Shown here: in pieces, positions 1,985 to 43,680 of the stretch
Position numbering within the stretch: position 1 is the first letter of the stretch
Layout: the number at the start of each line of letters is the position of its first letter
Assembly (NCBI GenBank): GCA_937996795.1
Contig: CALKUH010000050.1
Location: 5,867 to 69,866 of the forward strand
Direction of reading: 5' to 3'
Length of the DNA stretch: 64,000 nt
From: an uncultured Verrucomicrobiota bacterium
GTDB taxonomy: Bacteria; Verrucomicrobiota; Kiritimatiellia; CAIVKH01
The notes under the pieces: model-generated
Told to the model about the DNA's origin: nothing
The model's database searches: none
Seen by the model: the letters and a program-made list of their open reading frames with translations, nothing else
Program-made: the position numbers and the translations under genes

Positions 1985-2085
1985 GAAGGTGTCGGGTGTC
2001 AGGTGTCGGAGAGGAATCGAATTTACAGACGTTGTAAGGCCCCCAAAAAGTTTTTACAGACGTTGCAACTTTTTCTCCCCGACAC

Positions 2086-2092
<7 letters not shown>
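1985..2092. repeat. Intergenic composite element: GGTGTCGGGTGTCAGG left arm, two TTACAGACGTTG(C/T)AA motifs, CCCCGACACC right arm
   Basis: Read directly between the glmS stop and the murA start. Closely related copies occur at 11299-11380 and 43616-43680. Confidence 0.6.
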
Positions 2093-3912
<1,820 letters not shown>

Positions 3913-4841: not shown

Positions 4842-5927
4842 GTGAAAACCAGCGATTTTGATTATGTCCTGCCCCCGGAACGGATCGCCCAGGATCCGGC
4901 GGAGCGCCGCGATGGATCACGCATGATGGTCCTCCACCGGGCCACCCGGCGATGGGAACACAAGCGCTTCACCGACCTGCCCTCATACCTGCGCGCGGGC
5001 GACCTGCTGGTCTTCAACGACACGAAGGTCATCCCGGCCCGCCTGTTCGGGCGCAAACCCGGCACCGGCGGCCTCGCCGAACTCTTCCTGCTCGAGGAGC
5101 GCGAGCCGGGGGTTTGGGACATCCTGCTGCGCTGCCGCCGCCGCCCCCATCCCGGAGGGCAGCTTGAGCTGGAGGGCGGGGGCTCCGCCGAGATTCTGTC
5201 CTATGGTGAACAAGGCGCGGCGACGGTCCGGTTCCACATCGACCGCCCGGTGCTCGCGTATTTGGAGATGCACGGGCATACGCCGCTGCCGCCTTACATT
5301 AAGAGAGTGACCGGTAATCAGTTATCAGTGACCAGTGAAGGCGCCGAACCGATCACCGGTCACCGGTCACCGGTCACGGACAAGGAGCGCTACCAGACCG
5401 TCTATGCGCGGGCGCCCGGCTCCGTGGCGGCGCCGACGGCGGGGTTGCATTTTACGCCCGGACTGCTGGAGCGCCTGGCCGCGCAGGGCATACCGCGCGC
5501 AGAGGTGACGCTGCACGTCGGGATTGGAACGTTCCGGCCCGTCAGCGCGGAGCGCGTCGAAGATCACGTGATGCACGAGGAGCGGTACTGCGTTCCCGAA
5601 GGGACCGCCCGCGCGATCGCGAACACCCGCGCGAACGGCGGACGTGTCGTTGCGGTGGGCACCACGACCGTGCGCACGCTGGAAAGTGTTTCGGCCCGGC
5701 ACGGCGCCGTCGTGGCGGATTCCGGGCGGACCGGCATCTTCATTTATCCGCCCTACACCTTCCGCGCGGTGGACGCGATGCTCACGAACTTCCACCTTCC
5801 GCAATCGACGTTGCTCATGATGATTTCCGCCTTTGCGGATCGCGAGTTCATCCTCGCCGCCTACGCCGAAGCCGTTAAGGAGCAGTACCGCTTTTTCAGC
5901 TACGGCGATTGCATGCTGATTCTGTAG
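4842..5927 (+). CDS. queA: S-adenosylmethionine:tRNA ribosyltransferase-isomerase
   Basis: The SDFDYVLPPERIAQDP N-terminus, PLPPYIKR, ERYQTVYA and AAPTAGLHFT motifs match QueA. The start is inferred as the GTG at 4842, since the ORF track begins upstream at 4581. The gene carries an in-frame repeat-derived insertion (see findings). Confidence 0.85.
   Translation: MKTSDFDYVLPPERIAQDPAERRDGSRMMVLHRATRRWEHKRFTDLPSYLRAGDLLVFNDTKVIPARLFGRKPGTGGLAELFLLEEREPGVWDILLRCRRRPHPGGQLELEGGGSAEILSYGEQGAATVRFHIDRPVLAYLEMHGHTPLPPYIKRVTGNQLSVTSEGAEPITGHRSPVTDKERYQTVYARAPGSVAAPTAGLHFTPGLLERLAAQGIPRAEVTLHVGIGTFRPVSAERVEDHVMHEERYCVPEGTARAIANTRANGGRVVAVGTTTVRTLESVSARHGAVVADSGRTGIFIYPPYTFRAVDAMLTNFHLPQSTLLMMISAFADREFILAAYAEAVKEQYRFFSYGDCMLIL
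5311..5380. repeat. GTGACC(A/G)GT repeat copy 2, in frame inside queA
   Basis: agtgaccggtaatcagttatcagtgaccagtga...gatcaccggtcaccggtcaccggtcac. It is translated as VTGNQLSVTSEGAEPITGHRSPVT between the conserved PLPPYIKR and ERYQTVY blocks. Confidence 0.65.
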
Positions 5928-7203: not shown

Positions 7204-7238
7204 GATAACTCCGCGAATTTTCGCGAATGGGCGCGAAT

Positions 7239-7622
7239 TTATCGAGAACTGTCCAGGACGATTCGTTCCCATTCAAGCGATGAATTTCTAAAGTTCAGAA
7301 TCAGACCAACCTTGAGACCTGTCACGCGCAGATAGTTCAGCATTTGCGCCCGCTCCACATCCGTGATCTCCGCGATGCTTTTCGCATCAACGATTACGCG
7401 ACCCTCAACCACAAGATCCGGAATGTACTCATCCACCTGCTCGCCGCGGTAGTGAATCGGATAGGACGACTGTTTTGAAAAGGAAATGGATTCAAAACGG
7501 AAGTCGACCTCAAGCGCTCGCTCGTACGTTTTCTCCCGCAATCCGCGCCCCACCTCGCCATGAACACGCATCGCGCACCCGACGATGCGGAACACCAACT
7601 CCTTCTCCAACAACTCCGCCAT
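7239..7622 (-). CDS. GxxExxY family protein (PD-(D/E)XK-like)
   Basis: ELLEKELVFRIVGCAMRVHGEVGRGLREKTYERALEVDF matches the GxxExxY family consensus. About 127 aa. Confidence 0.7.
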   Translation of the reverse strand: MAELLEKELVFRIVGCAMRVHGEVGRGLREKTYERALEVDFRFESISFSKQSSYPIHYRGEQVDEYIPDLVVEGRVIVDAKSIAEITDVERAQMLNYLRVTGLKVGLILNFRNSSLEWERIVLDSSR

Positions 7623-7662
7623 GAAACTCCCCATTCGCGCCCATTTGCGCTAATTAGCGGAG

Positions 7663-8865
7663 TTATTTCTGCCCCATCTTCGCCCGCACGCGGAGGCGGA
7701 GGGCGTTGAGTTTGATGAAGCCGGTCGCGTCGCTTTGGTTGTAGCCGCCCGCGCCCTCGAAGCTGGCCATGTGCGGGTCGTAGAGCGACTTCCGCGCCTT
7801 GCGGCCGACCACGCTCGCGGTGCCCTTGTAGAGCTTGATTCGCGCGACGCCGGTCACGTTCGCCACCGCCTCGTCCATCGCCGTCTGCAGCATCTCGCGC
7901 TCCGGCGCGTACCAGAAGCCGTTGTACACCAGCTTCGCGTACTGCGGGATCAGGCTGTTGCGCAGGTGCAGCACTTCGCGGTCCATCGTGAGCTGCTCCA
8001 CCGCCTCGCGCGCGCGGTGCAGAATCGTGCCGCCCGGCGTCTCGTACACGCCGCGGCTCTTCATGCCGACGAACCGGTTCTCGACGAGATCGATGCGGCC
8101 CACGCCGTGCTTGCCGCCCAGCTTGTTCAGCACCTGCATCACGCCGAGCGGGTTCAGTTTCTTCCCGTTCACCGCCACCGCGTTGCCGGCCTTGAATTCC
8201 ACCTCGACATACTCCGGCTTCGCCGGCGCCTGCTCCGGGCTCACGCTCAGCTTGAACATGTCCGCCGGCGGCTCGTTCCACGGATCCTCCAGGATGCCGC
8301 CCTCGAAGCTGATGTGCAGCAGGTTGCGGTCCATCGAATACGGCTTCTTCGCCGACGCCTCGACCGGGATGCCGTGCGCCTCGCAATACGCCAGCATGTC
8401 ATTGCGCCCGGTGAACTGCTTGCGGTAGCGCTCCTCGCGCCACGGCGCGATCACCTGGATGCCGGGCCGCAGCGCGTACGCCGTCAGCTCGAACCGTACC
8501 TGGTCGTTGCCCTTGCCCGTCGCGCCGTGCGCGATCGCATCCGCGCCCTCGGCCACCGCGATCTCCACCATCCGCTTCGCGATCAGCGGGCGCGCGATCG
8601 ACGTGCCCAGCAGGTAGCCGCTCTCATACACCGCGCCCGCGCGGATCATCGGGAACACGAAATCGCGCGCGAACTCTTCGCGCAGGTCGTCCACATAGCA
8701 CTTCGCCGCGCCGGACTTCCGCGCCTTCGCCTTGAGCCCCTTGAGCTCCTCCTCCTGCCCGACATCCGCCGCGAAGCAGATCACCTCCGCGTTGTACGTC
8801 TCCTTGATCCACCCGAGGATCACCGACGTGTCCAGACCGCCCGAATATGCCAATACCACGCGCAT
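7663..8865 (-). CDS. argG: Argininosuccinate synthase
   Basis: [17 protein letters not shown]-loop ATPase start with conserved ArgG blocks throughout; 400 aa. Confidence 0.95.
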
Positions 8866-8916: not shown

Positions 8917-11298
8917 ATGCTGCATGCGGCGCACCGGTTCTTGTATCGTGTGGCTTCCAATATGCAATATCCAAACGCGATGCGGCTGCCGCCTCGAGAA
9001 CGCGCGGTGCTGGCCGCGCTGGTGGTCCTCGCGCTGTGCATGCGCGGATATCTGGCGTGGGTGGGGCAGTGGTCCACCGACCCCGACCGCGGCATCGTGA
9101 ACCTCATGGCCCTGCACATGGCCGAGGGCCGCGCGTGGCCCGTGTTCTATTACGGGCAGGCCTACATGGGCAGCCTGGAACCGTTCCTCTCGTCCTTGTT
9201 CGTACGCCTGCTTGGCCCCTCCGGTTTTGCCGTCGGCCTCGGCACGGCGGTCCCGGCGGCGCTGCTCGTGATCCCCGTCTATTTCCTCGCGCGCCGGATC
9301 GCGGGCCCGCTGGCCGCGACGCTTGCCGCTGCTTTCCTCGTGATCGGCCCCGACCCGTTCGCGGCCTACATGTCGTCCCCGCGCGGCGGCTATGCGCTGG
9401 TCCTGCTGTTCAACACCTTGATCCTGCTTCTCGGTGCGCGCATGGCCGACCGGGCGTGGCGGCGGGAACCCCTCCCCGCTTCGGATTGGCTCTGGATCGG
9501 CCTGCTCGGCGGCCTCGGGTGGTGGATCGGCCCGATGGTGGTGTCGGCGCTCGGCGCCGCGGGACTCGTGGTGCTGGTCGCGCTGCGCGGCCGCTTCTGG
9601 ATTCCCGGGATCGCCTGGGCCGCCGGCGCGTTTGTAGCCGGCGCCGCGCCGTGGTGGCTCTGGAACGCGCGCAATGACTGGCAGTCGCTCTCGATGTTCA
9701 GCAGTGTTGGCGGCGCCTCGGTGGGAAGCGGCGCCGCGCGCCTGCTGCGCCGCACCTGGGACGCCCTCGGCTTCCCCGCGCTCGGCTGGTCGTCCGCCCT
9801 GCTTATCGGGCTCGTCCTCGCGCTTTTGCTCGCCTTCGTCGGCGCGGCGTATTGGCGGATGCGCCGCGATCCACGCCCGACCGCACCCTGGGCGCTCGCC
9901 GCAACGCTCCTGTTTGTCCTGTTGTTCGGCTATGCGTACAGCACGTCCAGTTTCAACCGGACGGAAACCCTCCGCTACCTGCTCCCGCTCTATCCCGCCG
10001 TCGCGGTGCTGTTCGGCGCCGCCTGCGCCGCGGCCGGCGCCCGATCCCGCGTCCTCGCCGTCCTGATGGCCCTGCCCTTTCTCGCGCCGCATGTGGAGGC
10101 GCGCCTGCGGAACCGGGGTCCGGACTCGCGCCGCGAAGAAATTGCGACCGCCGCCGCGTTCGCGGACGAGTTGTCCCGCCGCGGGATCGACGCCGTCTTC
10201 GCCTCGTATCACAACCACTGGAAAAATTTCGTCACCCGCGGCGCGTTCCCGTTTGTCGAGCCGAGCGGTGATTGCGTGCCGCTCAATGACTGCGCCGGCC
10301 TGCTCGCCCGGCGCCCCGCCTATCTCATCTCCAAGGACCTCGAAACCTTCGCCGATGCCACGCGCACCCGCGCGACCATGTGGAAACTGCGAGGGGGCAC
10401 GGTGGCGGTGGATCTACAGTGCGCGGCCACCCCGTCGCGCCCGCTGCCGGTGACGGACGTCGCCGCCGCCACCGTGGTGCCCGGCGGTGAAGAGAGCCGC
10501 GCGGCCCTCGACCAGAACGTCGCAACCAGCTGGCGCGCGGACAGCCTCAAGGACCACCCGGCCCCGGCGCTCGAACTTCGTCTCACCCGCCCCGTGTGTG
10601 TGACCGGACTGCGCCTCTTCAGCCGCTCGTGGCGCTACCCGCTCTACACGAAAATCGAAGGCCGCGCCGCCGGCACCGAGCCCTGGCAGTCCCTGACGCC
10701 CGATACGCGTCTCACCGATTGGTATTGGAGCGGGCCGCAACTCTATGCGCGGGATTTGTACTACGCGCCGGAAGTGAGCTGCCCCCCGACCACGGTCACG
10801 GAAATCCGGGTTTCCTGCCCCGCCTCGCCGAATCGCCCCTCGTACCGGTTCTACCTCTCCGAGGTCGTCGTGCTGGAGGCCGATGTGGAAGCCGAATCCT
10901 CCACGCCGCCCGATCCCGACGCCGTGATCGCACAGTGCCGCGCCACCGGCGTCCGCGCGATGTATGCCCACCGCTGGCTCGCCGACCGCATCGGGGTTCG
11001 CTCGCTGCCCGACCTTCAAACCGACTACTCCGCGCGCCTGCGCCGCACCACCAGCACCGCGCGCGGCGGCCCGCCCCACGGCTTCACCACCATCACCAAC
11101 CTCCACCATACCGCGTTCTACAGCACCCCCGCCTGCGCCGCCCACAACCGCGCCGTGCTCGAAACCGCCGGGTGCGCCATCGCGGAGGACCCCGTGCCCG
11201 GCGGACACCTGCTGCGCGTCACCCGCGCCCCCGCCACCGACGTCGCCTTCGTCTGGACCGGCGACCTGCTGCTGCGCGACGCCCCCGACACGCCGTAG
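8917..11298 (+). CDS. Multi-pass membrane glycosyltransferase (GT-C fold, GT39/ArnT-PMT-like) fused to a C-terminal F5/8 type C discoidin-like domain
   Basis: The N-terminal roughly 400 aa are highly hydrophobic with about 10 or more predicted TM segments, typical of ArnT/PMT-like GT-C enzymes. The C-terminal ALDQNVATSWRADSLKDHPAPALELRLTRPVCVTGLRL resembles a discoidin domain. The start codon is uncertain (M1, M16 or M22). Confidence 0.55.
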   Translation: MLHAAHRFLYRVASNMQYPNAMRLPPRERAVLAALVVLALCMRGYLAWVGQWSTDPDRGIVNLMALHMAEGRAWPVFYYGQAYMGSLEPFLSSLFVRLLGPSGFAVGLGTAVPAALLVIPVYFLARRIAGPLAATLAAAFLVIGPDPFAAYMSSPRGGYALVLLFNTLILLLGARMADRAWRREPLPASDWLWIGLLGGLGWWIGPMVVSALGAAGLVVLVALRGRFWIPGIAWAAGAFVAGAAPWWLWNARNDWQSLSMFSSVGGASVGSGAARLLRRTWDALGFPALGWSSALLIGLVLALLLAFVGAAYWRMRRDPRPTAPWALAATLLFVLLFGYAYSTSSFNRTETLRYLLPLYPAVAVLFGAACAAAGARSRVLAVLMALPFLAPHVEARLRNRGPDSRREEIATAAAFADELSRRGIDAVFASYHNHWKNFVTRGAFPFVEPSGDCVPLNDCAGLLARRPAYLISKDLETFADATRTRATMWKLRGGTVAVDLQCAATPSRPLPVTDVAAATVVPGGEESRAALDQNVATSWRADSLKDHPAPALELRLTRPVCVTGLRLFSRSWRYPLYTKIEGRAAGTEPWQSLTPDTRLTDWYWSGPQLYARDLYYAPEVSCPPTTVTEIRVSCPASPNRPSYRFYLSEVVVLEADVEAESSTPPDPDAVIAQCRATGVRAMYAHRWLADRIGVRSLPDLQTDYSARLRRTTSTARGGPPHGFTTITNLHHTAFYSTPACAAHNRAVLETAGCAIAEDPVPGGHLLRVTRAPATDVAFVWTGDLLLRDAPDTP

Positions 11299-11380
11299 CC
11301 GCGGCGAAAAATTACAGACGTTGCAAACGCCGAAAAAACTTTTTACAGACGTTGCAACTTCCTCCCTGACACCCGGCACC
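11299..11380. repeat. Intergenic composite element copy 2: two TTACAGACGTTGCAA motifs plus a CCCTGACACC arm
   Basis: aaaaattacagacgttgcaaacg ... aaaaaactttttacagacgttgcaacttcctccctgacaccc lies between the glycosyltransferase stop and the nth start. Confidence 0.6.
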
Positions 11381-11402
11381 TGAAACCCTCCTCACCCCAA
11401 AA

Positions 11403-12026
11403 ATGACCCGCACCGAACGCGCGCAGTACGTCGGCCGCCGACTCGACGACTTTTTTCCGGACGTCGACGCGCCGCTCGCGCACGCCGACCCGTTTACGCT
11501 GCTCGTCGCGGTGATCCTCTCGGCGCAGTGCACGGACAAGCGCGTGAACGAAATCACGCCGGCACTGTTTGCGCTCGCCGATACGCCGCAAAAAATGGCC
11601 GCGCTGCCGGTCGCCACGATCCGCCGCATCATCCGCCCCTGCGGCCTCGCGCCCGCCAAGTCGAAGGCGATCCGCGCGACGGCGAAGCTGCTGCTGGAAA
11701 AGCATGACGGTGTGGTTCCGCGCACATTCGAGGAGTTGGAGGCGCTGCCCGGCGTCGGCCACAAGACGGCGTCGGTCGTGATGAGCCAGGCGTTCGGCGA
11801 ACACGCGTTCCCCGTGGATACGCACATCCACCGGATCGCGAAGCGGTGGAAGCTCACGCGCGGACGAAACGTCGTCGAGACCGAGCGCGATTTGAAAAAG
11901 CTGTTTCCGCCCGCCGACTGGCACAAGCGCCACCTGCAAATCATCTTCTACGGCCGCGCCCACTGCACCGCGCGCGGGTGCGACGGCCGGCGCTGCCCGA
12001 TCTGCAGCGAATTGCGGGCGCAGTGA
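11403..12026 (+). CDS. nth: Endonuclease III (DNA-(apurinic or apyrimidinic site) lyase)
   Basis: HhH-GPD motif (LPGVGHKTASVV), catalytic Lys and Asp context, and a C-terminal 4Fe-4S cysteine cluster (CTARGCDGRRCPICS). Confidence 0.9.
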   Translation: MTRTERAQYVGRRLDDFFPDVDAPLAHADPFTLLVAVILSAQCTDKRVNEITPALFALADTPQKMAALPVATIRRIIRPCGLAPAKSKAIRATAKLLLEKHDGVVPRTFEELEALPGVGHKTASVVMSQAFGEHAFPVDTHIHRIAKRWKLTRGRNVVETERDLKKLFPPADWHKRHLQIIFYGRAHCTARGCDGRRCPICSELRAQ

Positions 12027-17970: not shown

Positions 17971-18897
17971 CTACCGCACGTAGCCGAATTTTTTCAGGAG
18001 CCAGAAGTTGCGGTCCCACTTGGGTTCGACCTTCACCCAGAGTTTGACGCGGACGGGTTTGCCGAACCAGGTGGCGAGTTCGCCTTCGGAGGAGCGTGTC
18101 ACCTTGCGCAGCAATCGGCCTTTTTCGCCGATGACGATGCCTTTTTGGGAGAATTTCTGGACGTAGATCGTGGCCTGCACGCTCCACGGCTCCGTCGTGT
18201 CGTCGAGCTCCTCGACGGACACGGCGATCGCGTGCGGCAACTCCTCGCGCAGCACGCCGAAGAGTTTTTCGCGGATGACGTCGGCGATGGCCAGCTTGCG
18301 GGGATAATCCGTGAGCACGTCCTCGGGGAACAGCAGCGGGCCTTCCGGCACCTGCGCGAAGAGCGTGGCGGTCAGCGCGTCGAGCCCCTCGCCTTTCTCC
18401 GCCGAGGCCTCCAGCCACACCGGGTCGGGCCGTTCCACCGCGTCGGCCGGGCGCTGGGCGGGCCACGCCTCGCGCAGCGCGGCGGCGCAGGCGCCGCCGA
18501 GGTCCATCTTGTTCAACACGGCGACGACGGGCAGCGTCTCGCGCTGCAATTTCTTCATCCAGCCGAGGTCCTCGTCGCGCGGCGGCTGGCTCGCGTCGAG
18601 CACGAGCAGCGCGACGTCGGCGCCCTCCGCCGCGCCGCGCGCCATCTGGTTCATCACGCGTCCGAGATCGCCCACGGCCTTGTGCACGCCGGGCGTGTCG
18701 TGGAACACGAGCTGGCCGCGCGGTTCGGTGAGGATGCCGCGCACGACGTTGCGTGTCGTCTGCGCGACGGGCGAGACGATGCTCACCTTTTCGCCGAGGA
18801 TCGCGTTCAGCAGCGACGACTTGCCGACATTCGCGCGGCCGACCAGCGCGATGATGCCGGCGCGGGACTGCGTTGCGGGTTCGGGGGTATCGCTCAC
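17971..18897 (-). CDS. era: GTPase Era
   Basis: G1 GRANVGKSS, G3 DTPG, G4 NKMD and a C-terminal KH domain; 308 aa. The inferred GTG start overlaps the stop of the upstream MBL-fold gene (GTGA). Confidence 0.9.
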   Translation of the reverse strand: MSDTPEPATQSRAGIIALVGRANVGKSSLLNAILGEKVSIVSPVAQTTRNVVRGILTEPRGQLVFHDTPGVHKAVGDLGRVMNQMARGAAEGADVALLVLDASQPPRDEDLGWMKKLQRETLPVVAVLNKMDLGGACAAALREAWPAQRPADAVERPDPVWLEASAEKGEGLDALTATLFAQVPEGPLLFPEDVLTDYPRKLAIADVIREKLFGVLREELPHAIAVSVEELDDTTEPWSVQATIYVQKFSQKGIVIGEKGRLLRKVTRSSEGELATWFGKPVRVKLWVKVEPKWDRNFWLLKKFGYVR

Positions 18898-20279
18898 AGC
18901 TCCACCTCGTCGCCCTGTTTGGGCAGGAACACCTGCGCGTGGCCGTCGCCGCGCAGCCGCTCCGCGAGCGCCTCGCGCTGGTCGGATTCGCCGTGCACGA
19001 GGAATATCCGTTTGGGTTGCGCCTTGCGCGCATAGCGCGCGAGGTCGTCGATGTCGGCGTGTCCGCTGAACGCGTTCAGCGTGGCCACCTCCGCGCGCAA
19101 TGTGAAGAGATCGCCGAAGATGCGGACCTGCGCGACCCCCTCCTGCAGGCGGCGCCCGAGCGTGTAGGACGCCTGATAGCCGACGAGCACGATGCTGTTG
19201 GCCTTGTTTTCGATGCCGTGTTTCAGGTGGTGCAGGATGCGGCCGTGTTCGCACATGCCGGAGGCGGCGATGACGATGCACGGTTTGTCCGACGCCGTGA
19301 TGGCCTTCGAGTCGTTCACGGTGATCGACGGGTGGACCCACGGCGGGCAGGTCAGGCAGCCCATCGCCGCGTAGAGTTTTTTGCCGCCTTCATCGAGGTA
19401 TTCCTGGTGCTGGTCGAACACCTCCGCAACGGCGTTCGCCATCGGGCTGTCGACGTAGATCGGGACCTGCGGGAGACGGCCCTGCAGGATCAGGCTGTTG
19501 AGGTGGTAGATGAGTTCCTGCGCGCGTTCGAGGGCGAAGGACGGGATGAGCACCTTGCCGCCGCGCGCGAGGGTGCGTTTCGCGATGTCGCACAACTGCT
19601 GGTCGGCCATCGCCGCGTCGTCGTGCCGGCGGTTGCCGTAGGTCGATTCGAGCACGAGCACGTCCACGGGGTCCATGAACTCCGGGTCGCGGATCAGCGG
19701 GAGGCCGAAGCGGCCGAGGTCCACGGCATACCCGACGCGCGCGGAGCGGCCGCCTTCCTCCAGGTCGAACACGGTCAGGGCGGAGCCGAGGATGTGGCCG
19801 GCGTCGAGATCGGTGAAGGCGACGCCGGGCGCGAGTTCGATGCGCTGGCGGTAGTCGTGTCCGCGGAGGAGCCGGATCGCGCGTTCCGCGTCGGCGCGCG
19901 AGTAGAGCGGGACCACGGGCGGCAGGCCGCGCCGGTTGGTCTTTTGGTTCAGGTATGCGGCGTCCGCCTCCTGGATGAACGCGGAGTCGCGCAGCATGAT
20001 CGGGGCGAGCGCGGTCGTGGCGCGCGTGGCGAGGATCGGGCCGGCGTAGCCCTGCGCCGCCCACCAGGGCAGGCGTCCGCAGTGGTCGATGTGCGCGTGG
20101 GAGAGCAGCGTGTGCTGGATCGACGCCGGGTCCACGGCGCGCGCGCGGTTGAGCGCCTCGGATTCCGCGCGGCGTCCCTGGAAGAGCCCGCAATCGCGCA
20201 GGACGCGGCAGCCCGCGGCCTCGATGAGGTGCATTGAGCCGGTGACCGTGTCGGTTCCGCCGAGGAATTGTAAGCGCAT
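18894..20279 (-). CDS. MBL-fold metallo-hydrolase, beta-CASP RNA-metabolising family (RNase J / CPSF-like)
   Basis: HxHxDH motif (SHAHIDHCG), beta-CASP signature blocks and a C-terminal RMMBL-like region; 461 aa. Confidence 0.8.
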   Translation of the reverse strand: MRLQFLGGTDTVTGSMHLIEAAGCRVLRDCGLFQGRRAESEALNRARAVDPASIQHTLLSHAHIDHCGRLPWWAAQGYAGPILATRATTALAPIMLRDSAFIQEADAAYLNQKTNRRGLPPVVPLYSRADAERAIRLLRGHDYRQRIELAPGVAFTDLDAGHILGSALTVFDLEEGGRSARVGYAVDLGRFGLPLIRDPEFMDPVDVLVLESTYGNRRHDDAAMADQQLCDIAKRTLARGGKVLIPSFALERAQELIYHLNSLILQGRLPQVPIYVDSPMANAVAEVFDQHQEYLDEGGKKLYAAMGCLTCPPWVHPSITVNDSKAITASDKPCIVIAASGMCEHGRILHHLKHGIENKANSIVLVGYQASYTLGRRLQEGVAQVRIFGDLFTLRAEVATLNAFSGHADIDDLARYARKAQPKRIFLVHGESDQREALAERLRGDGHAQVFLPKQGDEVEL

Positions 20280-20291
20280 CGTGATAGAGTT

Positions 20292-20345
20292 TCGGGTTAA
20301 CAGTGACCAGTGACCAGTGACCAGTGACCAGTGACCAGTAAACTA
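20292..20345. repeat. (GTGACCA)5 tandem heptamer, repeat copy 3
   Basis: cagtgaccagtgaccagtgaccagtgaccagtgaccagtaaactagtg lies in the divergent promoter region between the MBL RNase gene and the EndoIII-like gene. Confidence 0.7.
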
Positions 20346-21725: not shown

Positions 21726-22895
21726 CTACGGAGTCGCGGCGGGTTCTGCGGGGGCTTCCGCGGCTGCGGTCTCGTTGGTTTCCGCGGGCGGCGTCGGGTG
21801 GGACGCGCCGAATTCAATGAACTGCTGGAAGCGCGGATCGTCGCGGATTGGGGCGAAATCCTCGCTTTTTGCCCACGCGAGGACAAAGGCGGACCCGAAC
21901 CGGCGCGAGGCCTGGGTCAGGGTTTCCACACATTCCGTCACCGCCTGCTGCCGCGCGTGGCTGACGGCGAGGTTGTAGAACGCGACGGAATTGCCGGGAT
22001 CGGATTGCAACACCGTGCGGAAGATGTTTTGCGCATTTCGATAGTCGTTAATGGCCATCAGCGCGACGCCGAGGTTGTTTTGCACCGTGGGGTCGTCGCG
22101 CTTGATCGTCGCGAGGCGGCGCAGGTGCGAGAGGGCGTCCTGCGGTTTGTTCAGCGCGGTCAGCGCGGAGGCGGCGATTTCGTGGGCATCCTCCGAAAAG
22201 GGATCGGCTTCGATGACCCACCGTGCGGCGGCGAGGGCATTTTCGGGTTGTCCGCCGGAGAGGAACACGGAGGCGAGTTGCAGGCGGGCCGTTGTGCGCT
22301 CCGGGTCGCGGGCAAGCACGCGGCGCAGCTCGGCTTCCGCGCCGGCGTAGTCCTGTTTGTGCTCGAGGAACCGCGCCAGTTCGAGGCGAGCGGCGAGCAG
22401 TTCCGGCGCCAGTTCGATCGCGCGCCGCAACTTGGCCTCTCCGCCCGAGTGCCCGGCTTCCGCCTCCGCCGATCCTTCGCTGGTGAGAATGAGGGCCTGT
22501 TTCCAATTCTTGATGTCGTTTGCGATCGGGGTCGGCTGATCCGTGCGGGTGGCCAGCGGGATGGCCGGTTTTTCCGGAGCGGCGGCGGGCGGTGGCGCAT
22601 GGGCCGCGCGCCGCTTCGCCTTGTACTGGGTGTACCCGAGCGCCGCCGCGTACAGCAGCACCACGCCGCCGAGGCTCAGCCAGAGCAGTTTGTTGAACAG
22701 GGTCACGCGGCTGCTGTGTTCGCCGCGCCGCCGCCGGACGCGCGTGCGGTGCGCGTGGTGCGTGTGCGGCGCGGGCCCGGCGCCGGCCTGGAGGTAGGGA
22801 CGGGGGGGCTCGGGGCTCGCGGGGAGCGGATAGGATTTGCGCGCGAGCGGCGGCGCCTCGTCGCGGTGATACATGTCCTTTTTATCGGGGTCCAC
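21726..22895 (-). CDS. Membrane-anchored TPR-repeat protein
   Basis: One TM helix (LLWLSLGGVVLLYAAALGY) followed by several TPR-like repeats. Confidence 0.6.
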   Translation of the reverse strand: MDPDKKDMYHRDEAPPLARKSYPLPASPEPPRPYLQAGAGPAPHTHHAHRTRVRRRRGEHSSRVTLFNKLLWLSLGGVVLLYAAALGYTQYKAKRRAAHAPPPAAAPEKPAIPLATRTDQPTPIANDIKNWKQALILTSEGSAEAEAGHSGGEAKLRRAIELAPELLAARLELARFLEHKQDYAGAEAELRRVLARDPERTTARLQLASVFLSGGQPENALAAARWVIEADPFSEDAHEIAASALTALNKPQDALSHLRRLATIKRDDPTVQNNLGVALMAINDYRNAQNIFRTVLQSDPGNSVAFYNLAVSHARQQAVTECVETLTQASRRFGSAFVLAWAKSEDFAPIRDDPRFQQFIEFGASHPTPPAETNETAAAEAPAEPAATP

Positions 22896-22970
22896 GGGGA
22901 AGAACTAGCCGTGCCCCGGCATCAGGTCAAGCGGCGAAGCGGAATGAGGGGTTCGGGCGATACGTACAAA

Positions 22971-24164
22971 TCATGGCGATGGCGCATTGTTCAAGTACTG
23001 GAAGCCACCGGTCACGTCCCATCGAAAAACCGCAACTGCGTCGCTTATCACGAACGACCGCCCCTCGTTATCAGGATAAATCGCTGGCAACGGACAGGTC
23101 CAGTTGAAAGCCGCAAAGGGCCAAGTATTTGAACTGATACTCTTGGTGTTGAATATGCGCTGGGTTTCCACGGCAACGGCTAACGACCCAAACATTTTGT
23201 ATGTCGAATAGTTGTACCCGCCACCGTCTGGGCATGTATTGCCGAACGGCATACCGCCGGTCGAATAATAATGATCCCTCAAATAGAGCGGACCAAAAGC
23301 ACCAAACCAATTATCTCCGGCGCGAAGGTAGAGATCGACGCCGTGTGCCAGTGAGGAGGTGATATCTTCGATCAACGCATTTGCCCTCTTTCGGGATGAA
23401 GCGATGTCAAAGGCGTCTGGTTCGGACCAGCTTTCTGCGAGCACCCCATAGAAGACGCCATCCAAAAAGTCGTCCTCGGAGACATACGACGCACTAGCCC
23501 AACGAGATTCGTTATCGGAATAGGCCTCGGCACATGTGTGACCCAACCACCAATAGGGGTTGCCTGTCGCGATCTTTTGCTCGGATTGATACGGCCATGC
23601 GTATCTCCCCGTCCATAAGAGACGATTGACGAGCGTTGTCAAACCCGCGTAACCCGAAACATGGACAAAAAGTCCCGTTGTTGGCGATTCTACGAAAAAA
23701 TTAGTTGGGAGCGATGAGGCCTGCAAGAGAGCGGCTTCATTGGTCCAATACGGAAGGTCCGCGCCGGGGTTTGAAACGAACCACGCATCAAAGTTTCCGT
23801 TTGTCGAAAGTGAGTGATTCACGAAATCAGACAAGCTTCCCCGAAGACTTGATTTGCAGTGATGCAAAAGTCCCGAAGACACGCCCCTGTAGGGCAACGG
23901 CGGGGCGCCCCCACCCTGGGCCGCCGTGCGCTCCGAAACAGCGTTTCCGCACCACGTTCCGATGTTAACGGCGTAAATATGGTCCGATATCGCGGGTCGA
24001 CCCGCCAGATTGGTTGTCGAGGCGAGCGCACATGTAGCCGACACGAAGTGCGCAACCAGCCCGAGCGCCACTCTGACGCCAACAACTTTTGATGGCAACG
24101 TCCATGCGCGAAACAGCGCCAAGATAAGGGTCATAAACGTGGATGCTTGCCGGAGATGAATCAT
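22971..24164 (-). CDS. Hypothetical secreted protein (low-GC island gene 4)
   Basis: Signal-like N-terminus (MIHLRQASTFMTLILALF...ATCALAST). Rich in W, Y and N. No recognised domain. Start uncertain. Confidence 0.5.
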   Translation of the reverse strand: MIHLRQASTFMTLILALFRAWTLPSKVVGVRVALGLVAHFVSATCALASTTNLAGRPAISDHIYAVNIGTWCGNAVSERTAAQGGGAPPLPYRGVSSGLLHHCKSSLRGSLSDFVNHSLSTNGNFDAWFVSNPGADLPYWTNEAALLQASSLPTNFFVESPTTGLFVHVSGYAGLTTLVNRLLWTGRYAWPYQSEQKIATGNPYWWLGHTCAEAYSDNESRWASASYVSEDDFLDGVFYGVLAESWSEPDAFDIASSRKRANALIEDITSSLAHGVDLYLRAGDNWFGAFGPLYLRDHYYSTGGMPFGNTCPDGGGYNYSTYKMFGSLAVAVETQRIFNTKSISSNTWPFAAFNWTCPLPAIYPDNEGRSFVISDAVAVFRWDVTGGFQYLNNAPSP

Positions 24165-24293
24165 TACGCGAGACTTCACTTTATTGGGGTGCGCGTCTGC
24201 GGCGATACCTATGTGCGTAAAACAGAAGGCCGGGAAGACAAATCTGTTATTTCGATTCATAGCCGGGATTTCTATAGATTGATCATCGTTGTC

Positions 24294-24893
24294 TTATGAT
24301 CCAGAAAGTATATTAATTACGGTCCCCGAGAAAGCATCCACGGCAACGACGGCGGCATAATCGGGACCCAAGGTGTCCGCAGGCAAAAGATATCCAAAAG
24401 TAACAACGTAGACCTCCCCCGAAAGTACCGCCGTAATCGGCGCCCCTGGTTGCAGTTCGACCGTTCCGGCAATCGCGTCACTCGCGGCGGCAATTGCTTG
24501 AGTTGACGAAATCATGGTGGCACCAACGACGGAAAATACATTCGAATCGAGCAATTGAGAGCCAGAGCGTGCCTCCAACAGCATATTGCTCCATGCGCTG
24601 CTAATCGTGAGGCCTCGGATTTCGAGGTTTGTGGAGGTTGTCGCTATCAAGCTTGTGCCCATCGTTGACACAAATTCTGCGGAGCCGCTGCCTGTCAGCT
24701 TCTTAATTTCGAGGGTAACCGCATTGGTGTTTTCGCCCGGCGATATCAATATTCCTATGGTCGCCGCAGTGTTTGTCGGAATTGAGTAAAACTTTGTGAT
24801 GCTAACTTCAATGGCAATGGCTGCGGCGGGAGCGAAACAGCAACCGAGAAGACTAATTCTCCAAGCGTGCAAGCGAATAGTTTGAGTTTTCAT
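24294..24893 (-). CDS. Hypothetical secreted Ser/Thr-rich beta-type protein (low-GC island gene 3)
   Basis: GGAGA RBS plus ATG. Signal peptide (MKTQTIRLHAWRISLLGCCFAPAAAIA). About 200 aa, rich in Thr, Ser and Ala. Confidence 0.55.
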   Translation of the reverse strand: MKTQTIRLHAWRISLLGCCFAPAAAIAIEVSITKFYSIPTNTAATIGILISPGENTNAVTLEIKKLTGSGSAEFVSTMGTSLIATTSTNLEIRGLTISSAWSNMLLEARSGSQLLDSNVFSVVGATMISSTQAIAAASDAIAGTVELQPGAPITAVLSGEVYVVTFGYLLPADTLGPDYAAVVAVDAFSGTVINILSGS

Positions 24894-24906
24894 GTTAGTC
24901 TCCATC

Positions 24907-26295
24907 TTATGGCGGCAGCGTCCGTCTGTTGGGGCCACTATGATAAAGTTGGGAGGCACTGCCAATTGGATGGTTTGAGGGTATATTTCCGCCCGAGATC
25001 GCGCTGTAGTCCTGCACGACCCCAACAACATCGTAGTTATTGTGAAAAAGGGAATCAGCCCGCGATGGCCCGACGGCCCGACCATGCGGCCGATAGGTTG
25101 TGGGTGTATGTGTATGAAAATAGGCGATTGTATAGGTCGGCCTATCTATTGGTGATGGAGTTAGATGGCTATCAGAGGGCTTGCTTCTCGGTCTTACCGA
25201 TGCGTTTGTGTAGGGGCCAACCGTTGGGCCGATATCTGTCGCGGCAAATTCGTATCGTTGCGACTGGGTGTTGACCTGAATCCAGAAACCCTCCTCCCTC
25301 CGCCCCGTGGAGGTCGTGGCGGCAAGCGTATTTGACCACGCCTGGGACGTGCGCTGTATAACCGCTGTGTTCGCAATAATTTCCTGATAGCTTGGAAACT
25401 GCGCAACGAACTCCCGTTCGGTTGAAATTGCCACGGCATTCGTAAGCCATGCCGTGACCCGAACGTTGAAGGTTCCCGCCACTGCGACCACGGTTGTTAC
25501 TGCCGACGAGGGGCCGTTGGTGATTGTATACCAATTGGTTGACGCCGCCCGACGAACCTCAAACAGGTAGTTTGTCGGCGGGAACCTCGTCGGATATGAC
25601 ATGGCCATAAAGACATTTGTCATCAGAAGTGAATTTGTCGGCGGCATTACGATTAAATCGGGAATCAGAAGCTCGTAGTACGTATCGAGATTCGCCTTAT
25701 AGACGACATCTGTAGCGATGCCTGATCCGAGATAATTGGTGATAAGCGCCCAATTCGTGGGTCCTATGTCGAGAACGTTGGTCTGCGGCGGATAGTCGCC
25801 CAATGAACCGACGAGCACCTGTAGGATGCGGTTCGTCACACCATGAGGGCTGATCCACACGTTCGTGACCGACGTGGTGAAGGAAATCTGGTTTTGCAGA
25901 TACCACAAATAGGCGCCCCATGATCCGTAGGCCTCTTTTGTCCCCCTTACCCATCCCGCGTTGTCATAGATCTTGTTGGTGTGATTTCGGGAGTATGACT
26001 GGTACACCGCAACGACCGACGTCCAGGCGGCATTCGCGCTCTCGTAACCCCAGGCGAATCCCTCGTACTCCACAGCCTTGGTCGCGTTGGTGTTGATGAA
26101 GATGTTTGTGGTCCCCACAACTTCCGTGAGCTGACTGGCCATGTTGACAAGCCGATAAGCTGAAATGTTCGGATAATTTGTGAGGACGATGGGACTGAAA
26201 ACGCGATTGGTGTGATAGAGATTGGTAGTTTGAGCCTGGGCCGCGGAAACCGTTAAGAGTCCGAGAACCATTGCGATGCGACACGCACCATTCAT
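24907..26295 (-). CDS. Hypothetical secreted Asn/Thr-rich protein (low-GC island gene 2)
   Basis: Signal peptide (MNGACRIAMVLGLLTVSAAQA). 462 aa. Its stop overlaps the start of gene 3 by 4 nt. Confidence 0.6.
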   Translation of the reverse strand: MNGACRIAMVLGLLTVSAAQAQTTNLYHTNRVFSPIVLTNYPNISAYRLVNMASQLTEVVGTTNIFINTNATKAVEYEGFAWGYESANAAWTSVVAVYQSYSRNHTNKIYDNAGWVRGTKEAYGSWGAYLWYLQNQISFTTSVTNVWISPHGVTNRILQVLVGSLGDYPPQTNVLDIGPTNWALITNYLGSGIATDVVYKANLDTYYELLIPDLIVMPPTNSLLMTNVFMAMSYPTRFPPTNYLFEVRRAASTNWYTITNGPSSAVTTVVAVAGTFNVRVTAWLTNAVAISTEREFVAQFPSYQEIIANTAVIQRTSQAWSNTLAATTSTGRREEGFWIQVNTQSQRYEFAATDIGPTVGPYTNASVRPRSKPSDSHLTPSPIDRPTYTIAYFHTHTPTTYRPHGRAVGPSRADSLFHNNYDVVGVVQDYSAISGGNIPSNHPIGSASQLYHSGPNRRTLPP

Positions 26296-28187
26296 GGGGC
26301 CGCTGGTCCTCCGACGAAAAAGTTGGTCGCCAGGGTCATAAGTTTTTCCTTCAACTCGTTCAGATCTGCCTGCGAGCCTGGCGGGTGGCTAAACGTTGGC
26401 GCGGTTGCATTGATGGCGGTCCAGTGCGCACGGATTTTTGATCGCACGATGGCAAGTGCAGTAATTCCGTCTTGCGCGTCGTCGGGATTCATTCCCGAAA
26501 CAAACCCCTCCTCAAAGTCCGTGAATCCGTCGCCGTCTGAATCAAGTCCGAGCGTAATTCCGACACCTGCGACCCGATTGCTGACGGGTATAGCGTTCAG
26601 GGCGTGTTGCCCGGCGGGCTCGCCGGGCGTGTAAACTCCGTTGTAGTCCTCATCCACAAACGCGCGAATCCAGTAGTTGGACACGGGCATTCCCGCGATG
26701 GAGTAATTCATCGGGAATGAAGCGAAATACTGCTCGCCGGTCAGGCCGCCGCTGGTGATCCACGGCAGAACCGTCTGATGCGTCGCGTCCCAACTGTTCG
26801 AGCTGGTGATGGCCACCACGTACACATCGCCCGTCGCCGCGCCTGAATAGCTGATGGTTCCCCACACCGACGGCACATCCTGCATGGCAATGTCGATGCC
26901 GCTCACGTCGCCCGTGACCAGCAGCGGGTTGCCGGCGTGTGCGCCCCATGGCTCCCACGCGTCGCGCGTGAGGTTGCCGTTCACGTCCCGGAACGCCTTG
27001 ATCCAGTAGCTTTGGTGATTGCCGATCTCGCTGTTGACGTAGGCGGCGGGGCTTGTCAGCGTCAACGACTTGGCCAGCGACCAGCTTTCGGACTCCGTGG
27101 CGAAGACGACATAAACCTTCCCGGTCTCCGGGCCGGTGTAGCTGACGCTGCCGGAGACCGTGGCCGGGTGCGAGGTCGCGGCGTTCGGGTCGGTCTGATA
27201 TACCATGAGTTCACGTCCATCGGGATAGCCGTCGCCGTCCGTGTCGGTCGTCGCGTCCGCTGCTGCGTACATGCGGACGGGGTATCCGGTCTGGACCCAG
27301 TTGTTTGTATCCACCCACACGAGGTTGGTGCCGCCGGTGGGCAGGTCTTTGGCGGCGAAGCTCCAGATTTCCGGGACCAGCTCGCTGCACATGAAGATGT
27401 CGAGGCCATTGGTGAACCCGGCCGGATAGACGATGGTCATGCTGAGGCCGTTGGTAACCTTAGCCATTTTCGAGAAATAGATATTGGTGGTGGTGCTCTC
27501 CTGCAAGAGCATCATCATCATTTCGCCCCCGCCTTCCAGTTCCGCCTGGGCGGCAAGGACTTGGGCTTTCGCGTACAGCCAGTGCTCCACGTCATCAGGT
27601 TCGATAAGGCGGGCGGTGATTTGCACGCGGGCGGGGTCAAGCATTCGCTCCCAATACGCGCGGGTGTCCGGGTGCGCACGCGTGGTGTAGAGCGCGGGCA
27701 TTTTGTCCTTGAGGTAGGCAAAGGGGTCGTAGCCGGTGGCCGGGGACAGCGTATGGATCAACTGGCCTTCGAGATTGTAGAATTCGACGGCGCGCGTGAC
27801 CGGGTTCTCCGCTATGGTGACGGGGTATACCGGCACGCTGTATTCGCGGAGGCCGACCAAGCCCTTTACGAACTCCTTCGGGAACTTTTCCGCCGTGAAG
27901 GGAATTAATCCCGGCTCGCCGGGCTGGCCTTTGAGCACGAAGTCGGCAACCGGCGGCACAATGGGCAGCAGGGCGTATTGCTGCGGGACGAACCACTGTT
28001 CGAGATCGTAGATCGTCTCGACGCGGGCGGCAAAAATGGCGTCGTATTCGGCTTTGTCGAAGTAGACCGCCTCCTCCTTTTCCGTGGCGACCGCCAGTAT
28101 CAGCGTGGCGGCGAGGACGACGACGGCGAGTCCGGAAAGCAGCCGCAGGTCAACCCGTCCGAACAGGCGTTTGAGTTTCTGCACCAT
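26292..28187 (-). CDS. Membrane-anchored surface protein with two tandem roughly 110-aa repeats and TSP type-3-like Ca-binding motifs (low-GC island gene 1)
   Basis: N-terminal TM anchor (LLSGLAVVVLAATLILAVA). DTDGDGYPDGRE and DSDGDGFTDFEEG motifs. An internal repeat (SYTGPETGKVYVVFA...YWIKAF / SYSGAATGDVYVVAI...YWIRAF). Confidence 0.6.
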   Translation of the reverse strand: MVQKLKRLFGRVDLRLLSGLAVVVLAATLILAVATEKEEAVYFDKAEYDAIFAARVETIYDLEQWFVPQQYALLPIVPPVADFVLKGQPGEPGLIPFTAEKFPKEFVKGLVGLREYSVPVYPVTIAENPVTRAVEFYNLEGQLIHTLSPATGYDPFAYLKDKMPALYTTRAHPDTRAYWERMLDPARVQITARLIEPDDVEHWLYAKAQVLAAQAELEGGGEMMMMLLQESTTTNIYFSKMAKVTNGLSMTIVYPAGFTNGLDIFMCSELVPEIWSFAAKDLPTGGTNLVWVDTNNWVQTGYPVRMYAAADATTDTDGDGYPDGRELMVYQTDPNAATSHPATVSGSVSYTGPETGKVYVVFATESESWSLAKSLTLTSPAAYVNSEIGNHQSYWIKAFRDVNGNLTRDAWEPWGAHAGNPLLVTGDVSGIDIAMQDVPSVWGTISYSGAATGDVYVVAITSSNSWDATHQTVLPWITSGGLTGEQYFASFPMNYSIAGMPVSNYWIRAFVDEDYNGVYTPGEPAGQHALNAIPVSNRVAGVGITLGLDSDGDGFTDFEEGFVSGMNPDDAQDGITALAIVRSKIRAHWTAINATAPTFSHPPGSQADLNELKEKLMTLATNFFVGGPAAP

Positions 28188-43615: not shown

Positions 43616-43680
43616 GCTGCGCGCGCCCGGGTGTCAGGTGTCAGGTTTCGAAAGGTTCCTCCCTGACACCCGAAACCCGC
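43616..43680. repeat. Intergenic element copy 3: GGTGTCAGGTGTCAGG ... CCCTGACACCC inverted arms only (hairpin)
   Basis: gggtgtcaggtgtcaggtttcgaaaggttcctccctgacacccg lies between the gnd stop and the MATE start. Confidence 0.6.

Follow-up and report, generated by a model that had tools for sequence, protein, structure and literature searches.

Putative helically phased operator pairs upstream of murA and nth in Kiritimatiellae, and the separate heptamer repeats beside them

In this study, we examined three intergenic sites in a 64,000-nucleotide stretch of DNA (hereafter the window; G+C about 68%), which MurA homologues assign to the Kiritimatiellae of the PVC group and whose sequence is found again in L001 and L002, two metagenome assemblies made independently of each other. 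Each site occupies the junction between two co-directional genes, the stop codon of the first on one side and the start of the second on the other, and the flanking proteins are those named in a preliminary description of this DNA: GlmS and MurA at site 1, a PMT_2-like glycosyltransferase and Nth at site 2, and Gnd and MatE at site 3 (Table 1). That description had united the sites as copies of a single composite element, in which inverted arms able to pair as a hairpin flank a tandem core. The sequence features are real and non-random, but they were wrongly merged: two unrelated things lie side by side.

Table 1. Positions and character of the features at the three sites of the window, of heptamer arrays resembling short tandemly repeated repetitive (STRR) sequences, and of the bAvd genes in relatives
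Feature	Position	Strand	Sequence	Context
Site 1	1985-2092	minus-strand gene line		glmS stop (2086-2088) to murA start (1969)
Site 1 heptamer repeat	1988..2013	-	(GGTGTCR)x3 on + strand	Tandem Repeats Finder period 7, 3.1 copies
Unit 1A	2023..2037	+	TTACAGACGTTGTAA	15-bp dyad with perfect 5-bp arms TTACA/TGTAA; 53 nt to murA start codon (1969, - strand)
Site 1 linker	2038..2053		GGCCCCCAAAAAGTTT	16 nt; G/C-rich stretch then A5 tract; sets 31-nt spacing
Unit 1B	2054..2068	+	TTACAGACGTTGCAA	17 nt from glmS stop codon (2086-2088)
Site 1 right arm	2075..2089	-	CTCCCCGACACC(TAC)	overlaps glmS stop codon
Site 2	11299-11380			stop of 793-aa PMT_2-like glycosyltransferase (11298) to nth start (11403)
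Unit 2A	11312..11326	+	TTACAGACGTTGCAA	13 nt past PMT_2-like glycosyltransferase stop
Site 2 linker	11327..11342		ACGCCGAAAAAACTTT	16 nt; G/C-rich stretch then A6 tract
Unit 2B	11343..11357	+	TTACAGACGTTGCAA	45 nt upstream of nth start codon (11403)
Site 2 C-rich heptamer-like run	11361..11390	+	CCTCC CTGACAC CCGGCAC CTGAAAC CC	nth leader
Site 3	43616-43680			gnd stop to MatE gene start
Site 3 heptamer hairpin	43628..43679	-	GGTGTCA x2.4 paired with CCTGACACC	no dyad unit
STRR-like window examples	1988-2009; 11365-11390; 20301-20339; 43630-43646			
bAvd gene	L061 4812-5282; L062 9531-10001; L070 9504-10004; L072 9513-10004; L071 ~2849-3250			

Away from the three sites, several other features of the window deserve mention. 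A low-G+C island at 22000-28000 (0.52-0.61 versus 0.66-0.72 elsewhere) is possibly acquired DNA. At 61700-63400, tandem repeats of ~480 nt, ~80% identical to one another (Tandem Repeats Finder score 1218), sit within a large minus-strand open reading frame (61627-63975) that probably encodes a repeated-domain protein. Long inverted similarity (73-78% over blocks of 100-230 nt) links 34250-34970 to 38470-39190, two regions separated by ~4 kb that presumably hold paralogues on opposite strands. A PDDEXK_3 gene (7239-7634, minus strand) lies within 7205-7666 between 34-nt inverted repeats (7205-7238 and 7633-7666, 88% complementary); the slot it occupies between argG and lysA holds a HicB-like gene in the relative L062 and is empty in L064 and L067, which suggests a variable small-gene cassette site.

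The core TTACAGACGTTG occurs four times in the window, at 2023, 2054, 11312 and 11343, always on the plus strand, and a 16-mer search allowing up to three mismatches returned 4 matches in the window against 0.12 expected. At both site 1 and site 2, TTACAGACGTTG(C/T)AA is present twice at a spacing of 31 nt, and these units are the sole AT-rich sequence of their GC-rich spacers; the core is absent from site 3. A duplicated core of 25 nt had been reported for two of the copies, but what is duplicated within each site is a 15-nt unit, the longer 27-mer AAAAA(G/C)TTTTTACAGACGTTGCAACTT occurring once per site at sites 1 and 2. The earlier proposal that the core is a dimeric transcription-factor site or operator gained support from comparison with relatives, although its symmetry axis had been misplaced: the relatives define the dyad TTNCA-N5-TGNAA, with its axis at the C of ACG and not at GTTGCAAC. 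Most units of the window type are asymmetric, TTACA standing opposite TGCAA, and such asymmetric units are arranged as direct repeats in 6/6 modules. Throughout the window-type modules (n = 6, from at least five genomes), TTACAGACGTTG-AA is invariant in both units and an A tract is kept in the linker, and a 12-mer that includes the centre is invariant in 12/12 units at non-orthologous loci of at least five genomes. Their linkers share a pattern, namely a G/C-rich stretch followed by A5-7 and then S and TTT. Relative to the downstream gene, the window-type pair is inverted at murA and in L032 and forward at nth and in L062, L041 and L068.

The supposed arms are of a different nature. GGTGTCAGG and CCTGACACC occur exactly five times in the window (1995+, 43630+, 43637+, 11365- and 43662-) against 0.35 expected, and Tandem Repeats Finder resolves them not as unique terminal inverted repeats but as tandem heptamers, (GGTGTCR)n, of period 7, with period-7 arrays in the window at 660, 1988, 5306, 5348, 20301 and 43630. 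At site 1, the inner heptamer copy of the array serves as the left arm of a hairpin; the right arm, which is CCCGACACC with one mismatch, pairs with 2002-2013 (11/12) and so encloses the unit pair. The arm hairpin forms in the predicted fold of site 1 (minimum free energy -34.3 kcal/mol, z = -2.0 versus shuffles), and on the sense (minus) strand of murA the array reads GACACCY three times, between the unit pair and the murA ATG. The fold of site 3, where the 2.4 copies of GGTGTCA occupy 43630-43646, is stronger (-48.1 kcal/mol, z = -5.6 versus shuffles). Site 2 has only the right-hand CCTGACACC, with no complementary left arm upstream, and folds no better than shuffles (z = -0.56). Hairpin arms, originally claimed for all three copies, are thus present at sites 1 and 3 and missing at site 2.

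Core and arms also occur independently of one another. The core is found without arms in L064, L067 and L041, arms are found without the core at site 3 and four other heptamer loci, and both arms surround a core only at site 1. Full-length similarity among the three sites was not detected, the interior of site 3 being unlike those of sites 1 and 2. A single composite family of the REP or MITE kind with terminal inverted repeats, as initially envisaged, is not supported by these observations. The site 3 hairpin is not kept in L073 and L074, despite a Gnd that is 92% identical, which marks the arms as a separate, fast-evolving repeat class; this genome carries such heptamers in many intergenic regions. 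The arms at site 1 bracket the unit pair by chance juxtaposition.

Further heptamer arrays with related units lie at 660-689, 5306-5377 (two inverted arrays) and 20301-20339. The unit variants include CACCTGA, GACACCY and GTCACTG, and TCAGTTA inside queA is the reverse complement of TAACTGA. Wherever an array precedes a start codon (murA, nth, MatE, the beta-CASP RNase gene and the genes in L032 and L071), the sense strand carries the C-rich or TAACTGA-like sequence; in relatives, long GTGACCR arrays follow the glmS stop. Individually, these arrays are varied. At 20301-20339, CAGTGAC is repeated perfectly 5.6 times, and, read on the minus strand, this array precedes the start of a beta-CASP/RMMBL (RNase J-like) gene (18894-20279) by 22 nt. 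At 660-689, the heptamers GTGATCG, GTGACCG and GTAACCG switch into their own complement, GGTCACTGGTCAC, forming a hairpin between the convergent Metal_resist and murA genes, where no start codon lies. At 5306-5377, a heptamer hairpin (AGTGACC... with TCACCGG x3; RNA fold z = -3.2) is situated in frame within queA and encodes VTGNQLSVT-SEGAEP-ITGHRSPVT. This insertion is also present in L062, longer in L072 and absent from L064 and L067, and it recalls repeat elements that insert in frame into genes.

Most telling for the units were the loci of relatives, which were fetched by MurA homology and hence independently of the motif. The lineages of the window, L064 and L067 are roughly equidistant (MurA mutually 78-79% identical), and arrays are kept before murA and nth in all three. 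In L064, L065 and L066 and in L067, the glmS-murA spacers carry TTCCAA-N3-TTGGAA twice, 32 nt apart, and a second such pair lies upstream of nth; arrays are confined to these two genes throughout the 74 kb of the window together with L001, the 21 kb of L064 and the 43 kb of the L067 genome (L067 plus L074). L062 (MurA 84%) has a window-type pair upstream of nth, in the divergent nth/argG promoter region. In L068 (MurA 79%), two copies of a hybrid unit, TTACAGAGCATGGAA, are spaced at 31 nt, and the pair stops 4 nt short of a PEP-mutase start. The more distant L069 (MurA 73%) bears five arrays of two to four TTCCAA-type units within 21 kb, their linkers all differing from one another; one array precedes murA, which there has other neighbouring genes, and another is between convergent genes, just past the sod stop. 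No array was found in L070, L072 or L075 (21 kb each), and in the nearest relatives of the window (MurA 94% and 84%) a bAvd gene replaces the array between glmS and murA. Altogether, 14/15 arrays lie 4-80 nt upstream of a start codon, 4 of these in divergent promoter regions; the genes that follow the arrays are murA, nth, CN_hydrolase and PEP_mutase. In L064, L067 and L068, 4-11 nt separate the second unit from the ATG, and several arrays have a short run of T immediately after the second unit.

Comparison of the orthologous arrays of L064 and L067 revealed where conservation lies. Their arms are identical at 24/24 positions and their spacing is kept, whereas centres (2-3/6), linkers (6-8/17) and flanks (14/40) agree at near-random levels. 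Since arms and spacing remain perfect while the rest is randomised, selection appears to act on the arms at these loci. Within L064 itself, the murA and nth linkers are identical at 11/17 positions, above the value for orthologous arrays of different genomes.

Some further observations concern the same loci. The small gene found between glmS and murA in several relatives, 23S_rRNA_IVP/bAvd, encodes a four-helix bundle and in most cases overlaps with the start of murA; its copy in L071 has inverted heptamer arrays on both sides, in the manner of an excisable cassette. Between divergent genes at 2546-2587, L068 also contains a different phased pair, TGATCTGACGGATCA and TGATCTGACAGATCG, spaced by 27 nt, which is probably the operator of another regulator. 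In the unrelated loci of L059 (65-79) and L068 (5509-5523), a perfect palindrome of the new half-site, TTACAG-N3-CTGTAA, stands as a third unit, 16 nt from the second and off the 31-32-nt phase.

Over 263 kb of Kiritimatiellae loci, TTNCA-N5-TGNAA was matched 35 times, compared with ~0.95 expected from base composition, and none of these matches was isolated, each having a neighbour no more than 100 nt away; the dyad was absent from 63 kb of additional unique sequence. The distances between neighbours (n = 20) were 31 nt in ten cases, 32 nt in seven, 16 nt in two and 95 nt in one, the last being about three times 31.7, and in 17/17 intervals of 31 or 32 nt the linker measured 16-17 nt. Across 37 units, arm positions were complementary in 93.6% of cells, as against 88% in shuffles, of which 0/500 reached the observed value; displacing the partner by one column reduced complementarity to 54-57%. 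Both-sided changes occurred in two arm pairs, from C-G to A-T at position 3 and from A-T to G-C at position 6. Single-sided changes, read as covariation of an RNA hairpin, give sense-strand G-U in some units and A-C in others.

A scan for the 17-mer TTTACAGACGTTGCAAC in 185,579 species genomes (one per species) gave 55 single matches, approximately the number due to chance; the true matches were L032 and L041 only, both PVC metagenome-assembled genomes with the same tandem pair, L032 being the Verrucomicrobiota-labelled CAYMCD01 (the same genome as L071) and L041 a member of the Kiritimatiellia. Matches in L034 and L053 were discarded as one coding sequence split across two contig ends. Scanning metagenomes for the tandem pattern gave 3 matches, of which L059 is real, and L058 and L060 were rejected as unrelated repeats. 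A de novo search for other phased palindromes in L070-L075 found none beyond GC-rich coding matches, and in L068 it found an unrelated TGATCTGAC(G/A)GATC pair.

Known signals were sought at the same sites. A scan for sigma-70-like promoters (TTGACA- and TATAAT-like hexamers 16-18 nt apart) gave no match in 1900-2200 or in 11200-11500, so that the promoter cassette suggested earlier finds no backing at sites 1 and 2. The accompanying idea of a terminator hairpin fares poorly as well: the scan identified no canonical terminator at site 1, the sole match within the site 2 array is a 6-bp stem on the minus strand, opposite to both genes, and two relatives have the same pair in a divergent promoter region, where a terminator would serve no gene. 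Rfam had no match at its gathering threshold in the whole window, and at an E-value threshold site 1 matched only a sub-threshold nematode sRNA (21.2 bits versus a threshold of 38). In Pfam searches of 25 window and locus proteins together with the precomputed calls for all loci, no transcription-factor gene adjoined an array, and no AsnC-family gene was seen in any locus. The ECF sigma consensus combines a -35 TGCAAC with a -10 CGT; this and the consensus sites of sigma-54, parS, LexA, CRP/FNR, the LacI family, BlaI/CopY, WalR and IHF were each discarded for a mismatch in spacing or half-sites.

Taken together, arm dyads, conservation restricted to the arms, fixed phasing with free linkers and retention before the same two genes in three lineages form a signature of cooperative protein binding. 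We therefore favour, with somewhat more confidence than doubt, the explanation that an oligomeric DNA-binding protein uses the TTACAGACGTTG(C/T)AA pairs as helically phased operators. Each unit is a 15-bp dyad, TTNCA-N5-TGNAA, whose half-site arms lie one helical turn apart, and two units (two to four in a relative) are set 31-32 bp centre to centre, that is, three turns of B-DNA. This three-turn spacing places the units on the same face of the helix, where an oligomeric protein, perhaps a tetramer as in NrdR or a DNA-wrapping octamer as in the Lrp type, could read them cooperatively, one dimer per unit, and control the genes immediately downstream, murA and nth. Protein and half-site would have diverged within the clade, to TTCCAA-N3-TTGGAA in the relatives and TTACAG-ACG-TTG(N)AA in the window lineage. 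The occurrence of the asymmetric pair in both orientations fits recognition of double-stranded DNA. Protein binding, cooperativity and regulatory effect are what we infer from this comparative pattern. Several findings nevertheless speak against operators: the TTACA/TGCAA asymmetry is unusual for a homodimer; five arrays in 21 kb of L069, one of them at convergent genes, look more like a dispersed repeat or the sites of a global factor than like a small regulon; and the closest relatives have the bAvd gene in the array's place, L070, L072 and L075 being array-free.

The main rival, which we consider possible but distinctly less probable, holds that the units are dispersed palindromes like REP/REPIN sequences, copied by a dedicated enzyme or by gene conversion from one master sequence per lineage, any effect on neighbouring genes being secondary. 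Like the units described here, REP, REPIN and BIME sequences are short, imperfect intergenic palindromes that are clustered, homogeneous within a genome and different between lineages. Such copying would explain why units are alike within genomes and different between them, why the window-type 12-mer stays invariant at non-orthologous loci with a common linker pattern, why the linkers of the paralogous L064 arrays resemble each other, how L069 accumulated its arrays, and why the glmS-murA array comes and goes among close relatives; in addition, two adjacent palindromes can fold into a REPIN-like stem of ~20 bp. The likeness of linkers within a genome and the frozen 12-mer are indeed a hint of copying or gene conversion and, together with the bAvd replacement and the density in L069, they keep a REP/REPIN-like origin alive. 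What it explains less readily is the low copy density in most relatives, with arrays only at two orthologous genes in the window with L001, in L064 and in the L067 genome, and the perfect preservation of arms and spacing in orthologous arrays whose remainder is randomised. Moreover, the linkers of L069 are all different, the asymmetric units are direct repeats and not inverted REPIN pairs, and Pfam calls for the fetched loci, a small part of each genome, include no Y1_Tnp/RAYT gene.

It is rather improbable that the element acts as RNA, its leader or intergenic palindromes folding singly or together into hairpins that affect murA and nth through processing, stability, attenuation or control of translation. 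Pairs do fold better than shuffles in L064 (z = -3.2) and L067 (z = -2.9), the second unit is close enough to the ATG in L064, L067 and L068 to mask ribosome access, and the short T runs would suit such a role. Nevertheless, the window-type pair is found in both orientations to the downstream gene, and in the nth orientation arm position 3 becomes an A-C mismatch; site 2 folds like its shuffles, arrays of 3-4 units cannot all pair, and a loop needs no fixed length, in contrast to the constancy of the linkers. The missing Rfam match and the lack of a canonical terminator at site 1 point the same way. A promoter module, with the right half of unit A (TTGNAA) as -35 and the left half of unit B (TACAGA) as -10, is very unlikely, even though the gap between TTG(N)AA and TACAGA is a constant 17 nt in 6/6 window-type modules and the units alone are AT-rich in GC-rich spacers: the consensus scan was negative, TACAGA lacks a conserved final T, its TTCCAA equivalent also lacks a conserved A at position 2, and at murA and in L032 the module would point the wrong way, directing transcription into the 3' end of the upstream gene. 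Least credible of all is a composite MITE-like element whose inverted GGTGTCAGG/CCTGACACC arms carry the tandem motif as cargo. The arms of site 1 bracket the pair and fold, and the inverted heptamer arrays of L071 bracket other cargo, the bAvd gene, at the same glmS-murA position; yet the window itself already contradicts the model, as there is a single arm at site 2, those of site 3 enclose no cargo, and the arms are heptamer repeats of variable length that accompany other sequences at 660, 5306 and 20301, to which L064, L067 and L041 add pairs without arms. By the usual definition, with terminal inverted repeats at both ends and similarity over the full length, the three copies are not a MITE family, given the missing left arm of site 2 and the different interior of site 3.

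The features that keep the copying hypothesis alive also motivate a bolder version of the operator hypothesis, in which the specificity of regulator and operator was rewritten within one bacterial family. The ancestral symmetric TTCCAA-N3-TTGGAA would have been replaced, at all targets at once, by a hybrid site in which the half TTACAG is new, the centre ACG is frozen and the half TTG(N)AA resembles the old one. The unit TTACAGAGCATGGAA of L068 has an intermediate form, and the third units of L059 and L068 are TTACAG-N3-CTGTAA. We regard such concerted rewriting as unlikely. If true, either the regulator would have been duplicated and now act as a heterodimer, or an operator cassette would spread and overwrite older copies by gene conversion or copy-paste, in which case a regulatory site would behave like a mobile element.

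Among known systems, the closest in geometry are NrdR and the Lrp type, and the sequence of the unit differs from both. The NrdR box is a 16-bp even palindrome, acaCwAtATaTwGtgt, upstream of nrd genes. Compared with this consensus, the unit described here is a 15-bp odd palindrome of other sequence with murA and nth as its targets; as unit sequence, parity and target genes all differ, the arrays are not members of the NrdR regulon, and L069 further departs from NrdR in having arrays of 3-4 units. The tandem geometry is shared, since NrdR binds two palindromic boxes ~31-32 bp apart (PMC2892513), as in the pairs of the window, L064 and L067, likewise in promoter regions. The Lrp-type regulator BarR recognises 15-bp semipalindromes, 3-5 per region, which follow one another at regular intervals of 15-17 bp on DNA that is wrapped around an octamer of dimers (PMC10201364). 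Arrays of this Lrp/AsnC type (BarR, Ss-LrpB) resemble those studied here in unit length (15 bp), linker length (16-17 bp) and number of units per array (2-4). However, Lrp-type sites have AT-rich centres and the form TTG.A...T.CAA, whereas the centres here are G/C-rich (ACG, GCC, CCG) between arms TTNCA/TGNAA, so that the arrays do not belong to an Lrp-type regulon either; the BarR and Ss-LrpB examples are also archaeal and autoregulatory, in contrast to loci here that hold no AsnC-family gene.

The heptamers, for their part, are related in form to a class that has been described elsewhere. Direct repeats of the heptamer TAACTGA, in two to six copies and mostly a few nucleotides upstream of start codons, are present in Beggiatoaceae, Cyanobacteria and Bacteroidetes, and their function is unknown (PMC4679880). 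Resembling these TAACTGA/STRR sequences, the arms of the window are intergenic head-to-tail heptamers on the sense strand near start codons (examples in Table 1). They differ in being GC-rich variants (CACCTGA, GACACCY, GTCACTG) that match TAACTGA at 5/7 positions, in often forming inverted pairs that fold into hairpins, and in one case in lying in frame inside queA. The arms therefore probably represent heptamer repeats of this known but unexplained class, for which our literature search found no report in Kiritimatiellae. Keeping them apart from the core keeps a false composite family out of repeat catalogues.

In conclusion, on unusually clear comparative evidence, the tandem core appears to be a phased operator pair, a cis-element that is new but of a familiar kind. 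Almost no Kiritimatiellae have been cultured, and in our literature search, which covered Kiritimatiellae palindromes and TTCCAA/TTGGAA operators, we found neither the motif nor an account of gene regulation in this group. Here, they present a testable cis-element with defined arms, defined phasing and two conserved targets, murA, for the first committed step of cell-wall synthesis, and nth, for a base-excision repair enzyme. The TTCCAA type, the L068 hybrid and the TTACAG type form a natural series of variants. Co-variation along this series could lead to the cognate protein, and the series could help to trace how the specificity of a regulator shifts in step with that of all its sites.
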